The notes: generated by a model not told the origin, from the letters alone. Positions 15,126-20,246 are shown, numbered from the stretch's first letter. The stretch: DNA of 29,086 bases from Planctomycetota bacterium (GCA_048622595.1 JBMCUM010000001.1:1-29086); one strand, 5' to 3'. Numbers and translations are program-made.

Positions 15126-15431
15126 TTACTTGTCGCCCTCGATGCGCGTGATCATCAGCTCCCAGCCGTTGGCGGTCTGCGGCTCATCGGCGCCGGGGGC
15201 GGTGAGCGTCTGGCCGGGCTCGACGGTCGCCACATCGACGGCGGCGTCGGCGAACCGCCCGCTGTCGTCGGCCTCGAAGGCGTGCTCGAAGCTGTGGGCG
15301 AGGAAGTCGGCGGAGACGCCGTGCAGCGCCCCGACGGTCATCTCGATGCGGGTGACGCGCCGGAAGCCCTGGTTCTCGGCGACCTGGCGCACCTGCGGCC
15401 AGAGCTCCTTAGCCAGTCCGTGTTCGTGCAT
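15126..15431 (-). CDS. hypA: HypA/HybF-like nickel metallochaperone lacking the Zn-finger cysteines (101 aa)
   Basis: N-terminal MHE motif, VTRIEMTVGALHGVSADFLAHSFE, C-terminal G.ELMITRIE; GAGG RBS before ATG 15431; no Cys in the protein. Confidence 0.75.
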   Translation of the reverse strand: MHEHGLAKELWPQVRQVAENQGFRRVTRIEMTVGALHGVSADFLAHSFEHAFEADDSGRFADAAVDVATVEPGQTLTAPGADEPQTANGWELMITRIEGDK

Positions 15432-15450
15432 GCTTCGCCTCACTCTTCAA

Positions 15451-15648
15451 AAACAGCAGGAATTCATGGGATACAGGGGATACAGCTTGCTTTTATAGCG
15501 GGGATGAACACGCCCGGACGGGTGCCCGTATGGGCAGATCAACGCGGATGAACTATATTGTTTTCCCTCTGCGTTCATCGGCGTTCATCCCCGCTATTTT
15601 GACGAGGAGAAGTCGTTATCCCCTGCATCCCCTGCATCCCTGCTATTT
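15451..15648. repeat. Nested inverted-repeat element built from 9- and 10-bp tandem units, with no ORF of its own
   Basis: Outer IR 15451-15482 vs 15617-15648 (27/32); inner perfect 15-bp IR 15495-15509 vs 15583-15597; 9-mer ATCCCCTGC units at 15618-15643; 10-mer units at 15568-15587; hairpin at 15523-15536. Confidence 0.85.
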
Positions 15649-16133
15649 GGTTTTGTCGTCTTCGCCGAGCGCAGGACGTCCTCGACGAGTCGGACCCCCG
15701 CGGCGGTCAGGTCGTCCAGCGCGGCGGCGAGCTCGTCGCTGAGCGTCCGCCCGTAATCGACGACCTTCGGCTGGATCGCCAGCACGCGGACCTCCGCGGG
15801 ACGGTGGAAGAACCGCGCCACGAGTGTCAGCGTCTCGTTGAACGGCGCGTCGTGCATGCTGGCGCGGTGCTCGGCGGGCAGGTCGCAGAGCTGCTGCGGC
15901 GTGACGGCGCGGTGCTCGCCGGGGGCGAGCTTCATCTCGGCCGAGTCGAACACGACCAGCCGCGTCGCGTCCTCGATCACGTTGATGAGGTTCAGCCCCC
16001 CGGCGCCGCCGTCGACGAATTCGACGACCTTGGGCCAGTCGCGCGCCTGCTGCACGCGCTGGAGCACGCGCACGCCGACACCGTCGTCGCGCATCAGGAC
16101 GTTTCCGATTCCCAGGACGGTCAGGTCGCTCAT
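15594..16133 (-). CDS. [NiFe]-hydrogenase maturation protease (HyaD/HybD/HycI family)
   Basis: LGIGNVLMRDDGVG, FVDGG, VFDSA, SMHD, LAIQP; C-terminal tail encoded by the repeat element. Confidence 0.9.
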   Translation of the reverse strand: MSDLTVLGIGNVLMRDDGVGVRVLQRVQQARDWPKVVEFVDGGAGGLNLINVIEDATRLVVFDSAEMKLAPGEHRAVTPQQLCDLPAEHRASMHDAPFNETLTLVARFFHRPAEVRVLAIQPKVVDYGRTLSDELAAALDDLTAAGVRLVEDVLRSAKTTKPNSRDAGDAGDNDFSSSK

Positions 16134-16182
16134 CGGCGCTCACTGTACCGCGCGGTTCGGGCGCGCACCAGCGGCAGGTCGG

Positions 16183-16776
16183 TTACAGCGAGCCCTTGGT
16201 GGAGGGGACCTCGCCGCCGCGGTCGGGGTCGACGCCCTTGGCCTGGCGCAGCGCCTGAGCGAGCGCCTTGAAGATCGCCTCGGCGACGTGGTGGTCGTTG
16301 ACGCCGTAGGGGACGTTGACGTGGACGTTCATGCCCGCCGTGGCGGCCAGGCGGCGGATGAACTCCTCGACGAGCTGCGTGTCGAACGTTCCGATCTTGT
16401 CGCCGGCGAAGCGGACGTTGTACACGACCGCGGCGCGTCCCGACAGGTCCACCGAGACATTCGCCAGCGCCTCCTCCATGGGCACGCTGGCCGAGCCGTA
16501 GCGGGTCAGACCCGCCTTGTCGCCCAGAGCCTCGTCCAGCGCCTCGCCGAGGCAGATGGCGACGTCCTCGGCCGTGTGATGGTCGTCCACCTCCAGGTCG
16601 CCGGTCGCCTTGACGGTCAGGTCCGACAGGGAGTGCTTGGCGAGATGGTCGAGCATGTGGTCGAGGAAGCCGATGCCGGTGGCGACCTCGGACGTGCCCG
16701 ACCCGTCCAGATCCAGCGTCAGCTCGATCCGGGTCTCTTTCGTCTTGCGGGTGATTGTCGCTTTTCGGTCGTTCAT
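16183..16776 (-). CDS. hisB: Imidazoleglycerol-phosphate dehydratase
   Basis: RKTKETRI, TGIGFLDHML, DDHHTAEDVAI, NDHHVAEAIFKA; ATG 16776 (the ORF-track extension reads through repeats). Confidence 0.96.
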   Translation of the reverse strand: MNDRKATITRKTKETRIELTLDLDGSGTSEVATGIGFLDHMLDHLAKHSLSDLTVKATGDLEVDDHHTAEDVAICLGEALDEALGDKAGLTRYGSASVPMEEALANVSVDLSGRAAVVYNVRFAGDKIGTFDTQLVEEFIRRLAATAGMNVHVNVPYGVNDHHVAEAIFKALAQALRQAKGVDPDRGGEVPSTKGSL

Positions 16777-16781
16777 TTTTG

Positions 16782-16823
16782 TGTTCGACGTTTGGGGTTC
16801 GACGTTCGGGGTTCGACGTTCGA
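16782..16823. repeat. Heptamer tandem array, 6 x NGTTCGR (3' arm of cassette A)
   Basis: TGTTCGA CGTTTGG GGTTCGA CGTTCGG GGTTCGA CGTTCGA. Confidence 0.92.
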
Positions 16824-16874
16824 CGCTGCACATTAGGCAACGATGCTCAATGATCGACGCTTTGAGGTTGCCGG

Positions 16875-17291
16875 TCAACTGTTCGGGGATGTTTGTTGGG
16901 GGCAATTGCTGCCCACGCCAATCTGGCGATTGCGGCGCAGGCTCGCAACGAGACCTTTCGTCAGCCCGCGAACGCGATCACCTAGATCGTATGCTCGGCA
17001 TACATGGTCATGTTCCAGATAGCCAAGTTTCTCCGCGGCGATCAATTGCGTCTCCGTTTCGTTAAGAGACCCCAACGCCATGTCAAGAAAACGAAGAAAA
17101 TCGGCCTTGCTGGAGCGGCCATGACCTTCGGCGATGTTGCTGGCGACGCCGACCACCGCCCTTCGGACTTGGGCCCGAAGGCCGAATCGCTCGTCGGGGG
17201 GAAAGGATCGGGTCAGCTTGTAGACTTCGAGCAGCAGATCCATGGCCGCCTGCCATGCTCGCAAGTCCCGATATGACTTGATGGCGGCCAA
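16875..17291 (-). CDS. Four-helix-bundle protein (23S rRNA IVS protein family, PF05635/TIGR02436-like), copy A
   Basis: SYRDLRAWQAAM, YKLT..FPPDERFGL.AQVRRA, SNIAEGHGR, FLRFLDMALGSLNETETQL; probable TTG start at 17291 with GGGAG 7 nt upstream; ~56% GC in sampled lines. Confidence 0.92.
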   Translation of the reverse strand: MAAIKSYRDLRAWQAAMDLLLEVYKLTRSFPPDERFGLRAQVRRAVVGVASNIAEGHGRSSKADFLRFLDMALGSLNETETQLIAAEKLGYLEHDHVCRAYDLGDRVRGLTKGLVASLRRNRQIGVGSNCPQQTSPNS

Positions 17292-17368
17292 TCCGCGCTC
17301 CCCAAGATGTTCGGCGACCTTCCTGGCGCTCGTTCCGGCCTCAAACACTCCACGCCGCCCGTCACCCG

Positions 17369-17403
17369 TCGAACATCGAACGTCGAACACCGAACGTCGA
17401 ACG
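17369..17403. repeat. Heptamer tandem array, 5 x YCGAACR (5' arm of cassette A, inverted relative to 16782-16823)
   Basis: TCGAACA TCGAACG TCGAACA CCGAACG TCGAACG; begins 2 nt after the hisC stop on the minus strand. Confidence 0.92.
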
Positions 17404-17405
17404 TT

Positions 17406-18443
17406 TTACATCAGCGCCTTCAGCAGCGCGGCGTTCTGCTCGTCGGTCCCGACGGTGATCCGCAGCTTGTCGTCGAGGCGCGGGGCTTGGAAGTATCGAA
17501 CCAGAATGCCGGAATCCTTGAGCATCGCGTGGACCGCGGCGGCGTCGCCTCCGCCGGGTCGGGCCAGCACGAAGTTCGCCTGCGAGTCCCACACCCGCCA
17601 GCCCATCGCCCGCAGCCCTGCCGTCAGCTCCGCCCGGGCGGCGCGGACCCGCTCGACGTTGGCGTCCTTCCAGTCCGCGTCGCGCAGCGCCGCTGCGCCC
17701 AGGGCGGCCGGCAGGGCGCCGACGTTGTAGATCTGCTTGGTTTTGCACAGCGCCTCCAGCAGCGCCGGACGGGCGACGGCGAAGCCGACGCGCAGCCCGG
17801 CCAGCGAGTAGCCCTTCGACAGCGTCCGCAGGACGATGACGTTGTCACAGCGCTCGACCAGCCCCAGGGCGGTCTCGTCGGCGAAGTCCACGTACGCCTC
17901 GTCGACGACCAGCAGCCCCGAAAGCCGTTCGGCCAACTCGCCCAGTTGCTCCGTCGGCGCCGCCGTGCCCGACGGGCTGTTCGGGTTGGCCACGAACGTC
18001 ACGGCCGCGCCGGACTCGGCGAGCGCGTCGACGGGAAGGGCGTAGTCCTCGCCGTAGGGCACCTCCAGGGGACCGGCGGTCTCGACCTGCGCCTGGGTGC
18101 GATAGTAGGTGAACGTCGGGACGGGGCAGGCGACGAGCCGCCGGGGCGCGCACGCGGCGCGGGCGATCATCATGATCGCATCGTCGCTCCCGTTGCCCGG
18201 AAGGATCCACCCGGGCGGAACGTCCATCGCCTCGGCCGCCGCTTGGCGGAGCACACCGGCCGTGGCGTCCGGGTAGACCCGCAGCGTCTCGGCGTCGAAC
18301 GTGGCCAGGGCCTCGGCGACCCGCGGCGAGGGGGGGTACGGATTCTCGTTGGTGTTGAGCTTGATGACCTCGGCGCCGGCGGGCGGCTGGGCACCGGGGA
18401 CGTAGGCGGCCATCTGCTCGATATTGTCGCGGAAGAAAGACAT
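17406..18443 (-). CDS. hisC: Histidinol-phosphate aminotransferase
   Basis: KLNTNENPYPP, NGSDD, NPNSPSG, VVDEAY, RTLSKGYSLAGLRVG (PLP lysine). Confidence 0.95.
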   Translation of the reverse strand: MSFFRDNIEQMAAYVPGAQPPAGAEVIKLNTNENPYPPSPRVAEALATFDAETLRVYPDATAGVLRQAAAEAMDVPPGWILPGNGSDDAIMMIARAACAPRRLVACPVPTFTYYRTQAQVETAGPLEVPYGEDYALPVDALAESGAAVTFVANPNSPSGTAAPTEQLGELAERLSGLLVVDEAYVDFADETALGLVERCDNVIVLRTLSKGYSLAGLRVGFAVARPALLEALCKTKQIYNVGALPAALGAAALRDADWKDANVERVRAARAELTAGLRAMGWRVWDSQANFVLARPGGGDAAAVHAMLKDSGILVRYFQAPRLDDKLRITVGTDEQNAALLKALM

Positions 18444-18452
18444 AACGGCGGG

Positions 18453-18507
18453 TCTTAGGTCTTAGGTCTTAGTGATAGGGCTGAGGCCTGAGAACTGAGG
18501 GCTGAGG
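18453..18507. repeat. Heptamer arrays 3 x TCTTAGG and 4 x NCTGAGR (3' arm of cassette B)
   Basis: TCTTAGG TCTTAGG TCTTAGT (18453-18473); GCTGAGG CCTGAGA ACTGAGG GCTGAGG (18480-18507), abutting the four-helix-bundle stop codon. Confidence 0.92.
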
Positions 18508-18891
18508 TTACCGAGGCGGCGTTTTACCCTCGAGTTTCATAATCAGGCCCTTGACGATCCTTTGCACTTCGTCGGCAATTGTGATCAGTTTCGCTGTCTT
18601 GTCGGCACTGGCGAATCCCAGTTGTTGGGCCAAGATGATCTGGGTCTCCACTTCGCTGGCGGATGCCCTCGCAATATCGAGAAACCTTACATAGTCGTGC
18701 TTGGATCTGCGTCCATGTCCTTCGGCGATGTTGCTGGGAACACTCACCGCCGCGCGACGGACTTGCGCAGTTAGCCCGAAGCGTTCGGCGCTTGGGAAAG
18801 CCGCCGTCAGTTTATAGGTTTCACAGGCCAGCTCCATTGCCCGTGGCCAGGCTATCAGCCCTTTGAAGCCGCTGTTTTGCCCCACACTCAT
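18508..18891 (-). CDS. Four-helix-bundle protein (23S rRNA IVS protein family), copy B (127 aa)
   Basis: LIAWPRAMEL, YKLTAAFPSAERFGLTAQVRRAAVSVPSNIAEGHGR, RFLDIARAS..EVETQ; purine-rich RBS; ~53% GC in sampled lines. Confidence 0.93.
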   Translation of the reverse strand: MSVGQNSGFKGLIAWPRAMELACETYKLTAAFPSAERFGLTAQVRRAAVSVPSNIAEGHGRRSKHDYVRFLDIARASASEVETQIILAQQLGFASADKTAKLITIADEVQRIVKGLIMKLEGKTPPR

Positions 18892-18899
18892 GGACCTTT

Positions 18900-18927
18900 C
18901 CTCTGCCCTCAGCCCTCAGTCCTCCGC
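18900..18927. repeat. Heptamer array, 4 x CCTCNGY (5' arm of cassette B), overlapping the hisD stop
   Basis: CCTCTGC CCTCAGC CCTCAGT CCTCCGC; the hisD TGA is at 18909-18911. Confidence 0.88.
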
Positions 18928-20246
18928 TCGACCGCCGCGGCGTGGGCGGTCAGCCCCTCCCGGCGGGCGAAGTCGGCCACGTCCGCCGCGTCGGCGGCCA
19001 GAGCGTCGGCGTCGTAGCGGACCACGCTGGAGGCCTTGAGGAAGTCGTTGCAGCTCAGCGGACCGGAGAACCGCGCCGTCGTGCCCGTGGGAAGCACGTG
19101 CGACGGTCCCGCGTAGTAATCGCCCACCGGAACGGGCGTGTGGGCGCCGACGAAGATCGCCCCGGCGTTGCGGATTCTCGCCAGGGCGCCCTCGTCGTCG
19201 GCCGTGATGATCTGAAGGTGCTCCGGGGCGAAGGCGTTGGCGACGTCCGCCGCGGCGTCCAGGTCGGGCGCGACGATGACGACCGAGTACTTGTCGATGC
19301 CGTGGCGTGCGGCGTCGGCCCGACCCAGTGCGTCGAGCTGCCTGTCGATCTCGGCGGCGACGGCGCCGGCCAGTCCGGGCGAGGTCGTCACCAGCACGGC
19401 CGATCCGGGGTCGTGTTCCGTCTGGGCGAGCATGTCGACGGCGACCCAGGCCGGCTCGGCGGTCTCGTCGGCGACGATGAGCACCTCGCTGGGCCCGGCG
19501 ATGGCGTCAATGCCGACGCGTCCGAACAACTGGCGTTTGGCCTCGGCGATATAGGCGTTGCCCGGCCCGACGATCTTGTCCACCCGGGGGATGTCGTCGG
19601 TGCCCACCGCCGCGGCCGCCAAGCCCGCAACGCCGCTGACGCGATACACCGTCCGCACGCCCAGCAGCTCGGCCACCGCCGCGATCATCGGATGCACCGA
19701 GCCGGCGTGCGTCGGCGGGGAGATCATCACGACCTCGCCCACGCCGGCGACCTGCGCGGGAATCACCGTCATCAGCACGGAGGACGGATAGACCGCCCGC
19801 CCGCCGGGCACGTAGACGGCCGCGCGATCGACCGGCGTGTAGCGCACGGCCAGTTTCCGCCCGTCGCGGGACAGCTCCGGCGGGTCGGCGATGCGGATGT
19901 GCTCCTGGTACGCGCGGATGTTGGCGGTCGCCCGCTCGATCAGCCCGATGAACCGCCCGTCGCGCTTGCGGAAGTCGTCCAGGGCGCCCGCCATCTCGTC
20001 GCCCGGTACGCGAATCCCGTCCGGCGTGAGCGTCACGTCGTGCAGGCGCGCGGTCTGCTCGATGACGGCGTCCGTTCCGTCCCGCTCGACGGCCTCGATC
20101 GCCTCGGCCACCGTCTGACGCACCGCGGCGCGGTCGCGGCGCTGTGCGCCCGAGGCGGTCAGGTTCCCTTCGGTCAGCCGCTCGATGGCGCGAAGCACGC
20201 GCGCATCCTCCAGCGGTCTGTCGGACTGGATGATCTCGACGGGCAT
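18909..20246 (-). CDS. hisD: Histidinol dehydrogenase (~445 aa)
   Basis: YVPGG, GPGNAYIAEAK, IAGPSEV, AQTEH, APEHL, GDYYAGPSHVLPT; start MPVEII at 20246. Confidence 0.96.
   Translation of the reverse strand: MPVEIIQSDRPLEDARVLRAIERLTEGNLTASGAQRRDRAAVRQTVAEAIEAVERDGTDAVIEQTARLHDVTLTPDGIRVPGDEMAGALDDFRKRDGRFIGLIERATANIRAYQEHIRIADPPELSRDGRKLAVRYTPVDRAAVYVPGGRAVYPSSVLMTVIPAQVAGVGEVVMISPPTHAGSVHPMIAAVAELLGVRTVYRVSGVAGLAAAAVGTDDIPRVDKIVGPGNAYIAEAKRQLFGRVGIDAIAGPSEVLIVADETAEPAWVAVDMLAQTEHDPGSAVLVTTSPGLAGAVAAEIDRQLDALGRADAARHGIDKYSVVIVAPDLDAAADVANAFAPEHLQIITADDEGALARIRNAGAIFVGAHTPVPVGDYYAGPSHVLPTGTTARFSGPLSCNDFLKASSVVRYDADALAADAADVADFARREGLTAHAAAVERRTEG

Follow-up and report, generated by a model that had tools for sequence, protein, structure and literature searches.

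Anatomy of the inserts

Three gene junctions of one histidine operon, in a 29,086-nucleotide stretch of DNA from a Planctomycetota bacterium (GCA_048622595.1, JBMCUM010000001.1:1-29086, hereafter the window), contain inserts made of inverted arrays of short tandem repeats. All genes between 14.5 and 20.3 kb lie on the minus strand, in the order hisD, a PF05635 gene, hisC, a second PF05635 gene, hisB, hycI, a gene-less block, a hypA-like gene and a gene for a CDP-alcohol phosphatidyltransferase (pgsA-like). At the hisD/hisC and hisC/hisB junctions the PF05635 gene is enclosed by inverted heptamer arrays, and the hycI/hypA junction carries a gene-less nested hairpin; no arrays were found at the hisB/hycI and hypA/pgsA-like junctions. 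This layout, with arrays at three of five junctions, two of them around a gene and one empty, had been described in an earlier account made without database searches (the sequence-only reading), and it is confirmed here. The window is contig C1 of a metagenome-assembled genome (MAG, G000) of 1.92 Mb, which is 64% complete, has 70% GC and is Phycisphaerae-like; the closest named relatives of the enclosed genes, or cargo genes, are found in Phycisphaerae/Planctomycetota MAGs. In the Logan assembly of run SRR21542050, which is independent, 3510 nt of the stretch are matched at 100% identity.

The insert between hisD and hisC (cassette B, 18444-18927, minus strand) is built from CTGAGGN units, and its 28-nt arms are 82% complementary (94% in an 18-nt core). 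In mRNA sense the 5' arm (18900..18927) is G-rich, its last unit supplying a GAGG upstream of the ATG of the cargo gene, and the 3' arm (18477..18507) consists of C-rich CCTCAGN units. An orphan array of three GGTCTTA units (18451..18472, minus strand) has no partner in the window. Cassette A, between hisC and hisB (16777-17405, minus strand), has GTTCGAC units in arms of 43 nt with 84% complementarity (96% in a 27-nt core); its 5' arm (17360..17404) starts 2 nt past the hisC TAA and its 3' arm (16783..16825) ends 6 nt short of the hisB ATG. The empty element (15451..15648, minus strand) consists of 9- and 10-mers arranged as a nested palindrome in three layers, with its G-rich side 5' in the mRNA. 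The outer arms, made of 9-mers (15617-15648/15451-15482), match over 32 nt at 84%, the inner arms (15583-15597/15495-15509) are perfect at 15/15, and the central pair (15573-15589/15537-15553) matches at 88% over 17 nt.

The inserts extend into the host genes. CTGAGGN repeat units make up the last five codons of hisD and its TGA stop (18909-18926), and hycI runs into the empty element with about 18 codons at its C-terminus and with its TAG. The sequence-only reading had stated that no host gene is broken, which holds, except that these two C-termini now consist of arm sequence.

In predicted folds of the sense RNA, the arms of all three elements are paired both in the minimum free energy (MFE) and in the centroid structure, with fold z-scores of -8.4 for the empty element (-104.8 kcal/mol) and -6.5 for cassette A. 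No Rfam-type RNA family was matched, apart from one sub-threshold glutamine-II match within hisC, and there was no rRNA match. I also considered the arms as intrinsic terminators and rejected this, as no terminator-like site is present on the coding strand.

Cargo genes and their composition

Cargo 1 (18508..18891, minus strand) encodes a four-helix-bundle protein of 127 aa (PF05635, E 2e-36; TIGR02436, E 1.7e-35; PDB 2GSC, E 6.7e-27), with an isoelectric point (pI) of 9.8 and a GC content at third codon positions (GC3) of 0.63. Cargo 2 (16875..17285, minus strand; PF05635, E 1.5e-33; pI 9.4; GC3 0.64) is a protein of the same fold, the start of which is uncertain: the TTG at 17285 retains helix 1, and the gene caller picked the ATG at 17243. 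Both belong to the family by a wide margin, with 124.9 and 115.7 bits for PF05635 (cut-off 33.8) and 121.5 and 111.4 bits for TIGR02436 (cut-off 24). Where a hand alignment had given 52 of 81 identical core residues, the two proteins are in fact identical at 59 of 112 residues (53%). They are basic, as is the sampled family (median pI 9.05), and the nearest solved structures are the uncharacterised 2GSC (Xanthomonas XCC0516) and 2RLD, each entry with five identical chains.

The intact cargo genes have a GC3 of 0.61-0.65, compared to 0.89-0.93 for the host genes, and in two broken cargo genes at the his junctions of a same-genus genome (G001) it has risen to 0.74-0.78. A constant 'foreign' cargo composition is rejected by the wider sample: over 79 loci, cargo GC follows host GC (slope 0.88, r = 0.85) and stays below it in 75 of the 79, by 7 points on average. 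Such a composition usually marks a mobile gene that is resident in its host, and does not suggest a recent arrival from another phylum. Transfer of the whole unit over such a distance is what one case looks like, in which a Phycisphaerae locus and four Acidobacteriota loci have AGTTGYC arms in common and 61-65% protein identity, with an error in MAG binning as a possible cause of the match.

Occurrence beyond the window

The layout is not confined to this operon. Heptamer arrays stand at all five PF05635 genes of the MAG, with a different unit at each. The arms were scored for 78 PF05635 relatives, sampled from species-representative genomes in the subfamily nearest to the window's proteins, and for a control of 320 real genomic pseudo-cassettes set in the flanks of the sampled loci; the cut-off for an armed locus was a score of 11, the 99th percentile of shuffled sequences. 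All genomes compared in this study are MAGs, and gene boundaries in the relatives were set by tblastn and simple open reading frame (ORF) rules. With 60 of the 78 relatives armed versus 8 of the 320 pseudo-cassettes above 11, and a shuffled maximum of 13, chance is excluded; the enrichment of arrays around this gene family is about 30-fold. The sample spans Planctomycetota, Acidobacteriota, Gemmatimonadota, Pseudomonadota and Cyanobacteriota, among others. A period of 7 is found in at least one arm in 47 of the 60 armed loci, and a period of 8 in both arms in 11. As far as crude ORF calls can tell, the gene upstream of the cassette is co-oriented with it in 42 of 50 cases. Enrichment for inverted arrays and for gene junctions was expected by the sequence-only reading, and it is strong, both for the arrays and for a position behind a co-oriented gene. 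In the bacterial family of the window, 23 of 25 genomes have between 1 and 10 PF05635 genes, and 21 of the 29 loci inspected there are armed. The class as a whole is built from inverted arms of tandem 7-mers (sometimes 8- to 10-mers) around a loop that is either short or holds one small gene without a promoter.

The same few repeat words are scattered over several loci of each genome, and arrays also occur without cargo. CTGAGGN arrays are present at 4 loci in the MAG, at some 6 to 9 loci in either same-genus genome (G001 and G002) and also in three further genera, with zero matches for reversed-pattern controls. On other contigs of the MAG, the unit types of the window recur in hairpins without a gene and in single arrays. 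A different repeat family had been assigned to each array of the operon, which is correct inside the window, where the three families are distinct, yet each of them recurs at further loci of the genome and its relatives.

Some single loci of the MAG deserve mention. Two gene-less hairpins of about 350 and 160 nt (C7:8920-9270 and C10:4000-4160) are composed of nested layers of differing 7- and 8-mer arrays (CTCGTGAA, GGTCAAC and others), which suggests repeated insertion into older loops. At C58:8613-9188 the start of a PF05635 gene falls right on the end of an N6-methylase-like frame, with CTCAAAT-type arrays 3' of the PF05635 gene up to the contig end; this may be a cassette that lies in a restriction-modification gene or behind it. 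A MITE-like (miniature inverted-repeat transposable element) sequence of 111 nt lies beside a CTGAGGN and GGTCTTA array at C69:1040-1150, with copies of 88-97% identity on C154, C226, C150 and C152. A further repeat of about 40-55 nt (C105:3940-3990), with copies 87-94% identical on more than 40 contigs, represents an abundant family that resembles repetitive extragenic palindromic (REP) sequences and is unrelated to the heptamer arrays.

Turnover at the junctions

The his junctions were compared among 30 genomes of the order (that of the window and 29 relatives) in which the order hisD-hisC-hisB is conserved; owing to kinship, genomes within the order are not mutually independent. Four states are observed: a bare spacer of 11-40 nt, an empty heptamer hairpin (L006, L011, L012, L022), four-helix-bundle cargo (L002, L003, L007, L010, L016) and, within heptamer-type arms, cargo of the GxxExxY/PF13366 type, a PD-(D/E)XK nuclease (L010, L018, L028). 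On a tree of HisD, HisC and HisB, at least 7 changes between presence and absence are required per his junction. The empty orthologous junctions that the sequence-only reading suggested looking for are present here and at the V-ATPase junction described below. The comparison shows that inserts have been gained and lost repeatedly at the same junctions within one order, that they stack or nest, and that they can lose their cargo and degrade until an empty hairpin or a single array is left.

The two same-genus genomes (G001 and G002) have cargo at both his junctions, in G001 broken in both cases, by a stop and a frameshift. The same-genus cargo proteins are 47-62% identical to those of the window, compared to 71-87% for the His proteins. 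The orphan GGTCTTA array of the window corresponds to the paired arms of a cassette at the same junction in G002, and the outer end of the 3' arm of cassette A recurs in G001, outside GGTCGAA arms. The his junctions may once have held two stacked or adjacent cassettes, of which the lineages would have lost different parts.

At the hisC/hisB junction of two relatives (L013, L028) small ORFs for zinc-ribbon and transmembrane proteins are found, two in tandem in L013, and they are flanked by GC-rich palindromes, not by heptamer arrays; these would be a third kind of junction cargo. In a genome of another genus (G011:C371:25205-25525) a PF05635 gene lies just 3' of hisB on the contig with hisC, so that a third junction of the his operon is used as well.

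Similar states exist elsewhere in the genus. The V-ATPase B/D junction is filled in the MAG of the window; G002 has an empty hairpin there that shares the ATTGCGG/CCGCAAT unit and the 3' boundary with the filled site, G001 has the 5' array followed by unrelated sequence, and G005, from another genus, has no array. A third junction has a different unit type in each of three species of the genus. The Fe-S protein gene that lies upstream of the C144 cassette has an ortholog in G002 (L157, G002:C73:9342-10964), for which two in-frame TAG codons are reported.

The host genes of the window are assigned as follows, all on the minus strand. Histidinol dehydrogenase is encoded by hisD (18909..20210, start approximate; PF00815, E 4.9e-139), histidinol-phosphate aminotransferase by hisC (17406..18443; PF00155, E 1.5e-57) and imidazoleglycerol-phosphate dehydratase by hisB (16183..16776; PF00475, E 1.1e-63). 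The HycI-type hydrogenase maturation protease occupies 15594..16133 in its correct frame (PF01750, E 2e-21), with the domain ending at residue 144 of 179, and the hypA-like gene 15126..15443 (PF01155, E 1.8e-9, N-terminal half only; likely ATG at 15431). The protease gene and the truncated-looking hypA (15126-16133), co-oriented and 3' of hisB, form an unusual appendix of a his operon.

Arm polarity

The two arms are not equivalent. The arm 5' of the cargo has more G than C in 51 cases versus 8 (p = 9e-9), and AGG is found in 28 of 49 units of the 5' arm (14.3 expected) versus 2 of 49 units of the 3' arm. The same polarity is seen at the his junctions, where the G-rich arm faces incoming transcription in 14 of the 18 array-bearing junctions and the opposite holds in 4, gene-less hairpins included. 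As the arms of a palindrome look alike after inversion, this polarity ties the direction of the cargo to the arms, and together with the co-oriented upstream gene it ties arms and cargo to host transcription. The polarity could result from a Shine-Dalgarno-like sequence that serves the promoter-less cargo, or from the avoidance of a C-rich, unpaired and Rho-attracting leader just past the upstream stop. A heptamer array might also have served as a three-frame stop, an idea that I dropped, as stop codons are present in 21 of 49 units with 17.7 ± 2.8 expected.

Interpretation

These elements are probably, in my moderately confident opinion, palindromic DNA inserts akin to the ORF-bearing intervening sequences (IVSs) of 23S rRNA, which lie in intercistronic spacers as selfish or near-neutral passengers and are transcribed by read-through. 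That discrete cassettes of the 23S IVS type sit at operon junctions, co-oriented, with a GC content below that of the host, and in both empty and filled form, was already proposed in the sequence-only reading and agrees with the observations. Such passengers would be tolerated because they take up no more than the stretch from a stop codon to the following ribosome-binding site. Transcribed from upstream, the arms would likely close to a stem of 20-45 bp, which plausibly, by analogy with rRNA, is a natural substrate of RNase III. Cleavage would then cut the operon mRNA into stem-capped pieces, with no splicing, and the cargo would be translated chiefly on nascent RNA, ahead of the synthesis of the 3' arm.

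Several observations weigh against this interpretation. No multi-copy interiors or recent duplicates were found in the MAG, the interiors being single-copy and the closest cargo pair 53% identical, and neither a target-site duplication at the cassette boundaries nor an accompanying recombinase was seen; as duplication, recombinase and near-identical copies are all lacking, movement itself is not observed. RNase III genes are present in same-genus genomes, and none was found in the incomplete (64%) MAG of the window. The genus has kept the two his cassettes by vertical descent. The sequence-only reading had named vertical carriage with host-like GC as a sign against mobile cassettes; the vertical part is what is seen at these two junctions, whereas the GC3 is far below that of the host (0.63 versus 0.92). 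Some 8 of about 100 cargo genes have stops and most are intact, which argues for some selected function over pure junk. Finally, the strict polarity and the enrichment of AGG suggest a constraint at the level of RNA or translation, which a pure DNA parasite does not need.

A bolder version of the passenger interpretation, which I put forward tentatively and consider rather doubtful, is that the heptamer-armed cassettes with four-helix-bundle or GxxExxY cargo are one widespread element that spreads itself without a classical transposase and targets hairpin loops and stop-proximal spacers in DNA that is transcribed. The same element would have made the ORF-bearing rRNA IVSs and would seed the unexplained heptamer arrays dispersed in many bacteria, such as GGGAATC and the short tandemly repeated repetitive (STRR) sequences, with an Avd-like pentamer or a nuclease acting on the arms during spread.

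It is unlikely, and less probable than that, that the inserts are intervening sequences at the RNA level, in which arm pairing is selected, looping-out or excision keeps the insert non-polar, and each small protein recognises its own stem. The arms do pair in the predicted folds, the cassettes are co-oriented with host transcription, and the G-rich arm is transcribed ahead of its partner, also where the copy at a his junction has no gene. The proteins are basic, and relatives of Avd are reported to work with RNA. In the related set of his junctions, with 25 G·U versus 11 A·C mismatches, the arms even seem to bear the mark of selection on the sense RNA. However, this excess of G·U does not persist in the larger and more independent sample of 60 cassettes, where 64 G·U stand against 58 A·C (p = 0.65). 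Without a consistent bias, pairing is apparently not maintained by selection on the mRNA alone, and the arms look as if they were born complementary and decayed afterwards. A match of each protein with its cognate repeat is not seen either. Arm units are similar at 5.6-6.5 of 7 positions where the proteins are more than about 60% identical and drop below that to a background of 3.8 of 7; a deep co-variation of the unit with the protein clade is rejected (Mantel r = 0.10), and pairs from different phyla show nothing. Empty copies persist without any protein, and cutting an mRNA stem would part the cistrons without rejoining them. Looped-out arms had been invoked as the cause of non-polarity, for which they are not needed, since the cistrons are translated independently and the coding strand is without a terminator-like site. 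The RNA-level mechanism of the sequence-only reading is therefore only partly supported.

Quite improbable is the idea that the arrays are devices of the host for regulation or RNA processing, for example stabilising stems by which segments of the operon reach differing levels, sites of a global regulator or G-quadruplexes, with the small genes incidental. Comparable arrays have been published as regulator sites in Geobacter (PMC2700814) and as G-quadruplex repeats in Xanthomonas and Nostoc (PMC4692102), and the polarity bias fits such a role. However, the units vary from locus to locus within a genome and, at a given junction, from species to species, many close relatives make do with the short bare spacer, the elements decay, and arrays are strongly enriched around one gene family.

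Least of all do I believe in REP-like arrays moved in trans by a Y1 (IS200-type) transposase of the REP-associated tyrosine transposase (RAYT) kind encoded elsewhere in the genome, a very improbable reading to which the overall likeness to REP, with hairpins scattered between co-oriented genes, and the Y1_Tnp genes of the MAG (weak matches) and of relatives (1-13 per genome) lend some credit, and against which stand the cargo genes, which are not Y1 transposases, and the 0 of 8 inspected Y1 loci from three relatives with an array of period 7-10, GC-rich REP-type hairpins flanking them instead. Three loci with Y1/RAYT-type genes (L141, L142 and L145, from G001, G018 and G013; L141 is in part N-masked) lie amid tandem GC-rich REP hairpins, so that the classical REPtron layout is present in the bacterial order of the window.

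Comparison with known systems

No transposase accompanies the cassettes, and the sequence-only reading was right in reporting neither a transposase nor a clear target duplication. Measured against MITEs and classical transposons, the inverted arms are present, and target-site duplication and near-identical copies are absent. The likeness to REP sequences and bacterial interspersed mosaic elements (BIMEs) with their RAYT lies in short palindromic intergenic repeats, of which few copies bear a gene among many without; the cargo, however, is not Y1, the arms are variable tandem arrays instead of one conserved hairpin, and the local RAYTs own different REP hairpins. Correia (nemis) elements of Neisseria are co-transcribed inverted-repeat inserts as well, and their RNA hairpins are cut by RNase III, which alters mRNA stability; they are MITEs of about 100-150 bp with TA duplication, no ORF and no tandem-repeat arms. 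The Avd protein of diversity-generating retroelements (DGRs) has a homologous four-helix-bundle fold and is likewise basic, but the score of 24.6 bits against NF033474 is far under the cut-off of 80 bits, and neither a reverse transcriptase nor a pair of template and variable repeats is seen here, though no search aimed at them was made. An integron cassette has one attC at its 3' end and is arrayed beside an integrase and attI, unlike the arms here, which flank both sides of each gene; with regard to DGRs and integrons alike, the genes next to the cassettes all have other Pfam assignments (hisD, hisC, hisB, HycI and hypA-like).

Dispersed heptamer arrays are known from cyanobacteria as STRR sequences. 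As in the present case, dispersed arrays are tandem 7-mers that often converge in pairs between co-oriented ORFs, with the G-rich strand close behind a stop codon and the C-rich strand close ahead of a start, and they are transcribed. This pairing between ORFs and this strand order are described for the GGGAATC/GGGGAYT arrays of Xanthomonas and Nostoc (PMC4692102), and in Geobacter paired arrays of heptamers or octamers were read as 'regulator sites' (PMC2700814). Those arrays were linked to no gene, with a G-quadruplex or a regulator proposed, whereas the arrays described here are the arms of PF05635 and GxxExxY cassettes. Full-text searches of the literature turned up nothing on operon-junction cassettes of the PF05635 or GxxExxY kind.

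The findings link three subjects that are separate in print, the rRNA IVSs with their orphan S23p ORF, the large uncharacterised families PF05635 and GxxExxY, and the excess of intergenic heptamer repeats. If these belong to one class of element, ordinary operons become a place where the origin of rRNA IVSs can be tested, and the window offers a natural experiment, with three junctions in a single operon and with relatives in which the insert is filled, empty, half-decayed or absent. For annotation, the small genes should not be read as members of the operon, as the inserts rewrite the C-termini and stops of their hosts (hisD, HycI), and long stems of the RNase III type within essential operons may shape mRNA processing.

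The closest known counterpart is the ORF-bearing 23S rRNA IVS of Coxiella and Leptospira, in which a long terminal inverted repeat likewise encloses a PF05635 ORF in its loop. In Coxiella burnetii the IVS has a terminal stem of 28 bp and, before the S23p (PF05635) ORF, three tandem GACAGAT units of variable number; RNase III cuts midway along the stem, the ORF is decaying and apparently untranslated, and a mobile origin was proposed long ago (PMC4990558). Tandem heptamers in the arm upstream of the ORF, the lack of a promoter, a tendency to decay, a GC content below that of the host and a proposed horizontal origin (PMC4990558) are shared with the cassettes described here. In contrast, the rRNA IVSs reside in helix 45, 25 or 9, from which excision by RNase III leaves a working fragmented rRNA, and here the flanks are his, hyc and hyp cistrons. 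The present elements also overlap host stops and number two or three in an operon; they are stacked or nested, and GxxExxY cargo and empty copies alternate with them. All structural traits of the Coxiella IVS are found here except for the location in rRNA, and the IVS-type insert, little described outside rRNA, also settles between ordinary protein genes.

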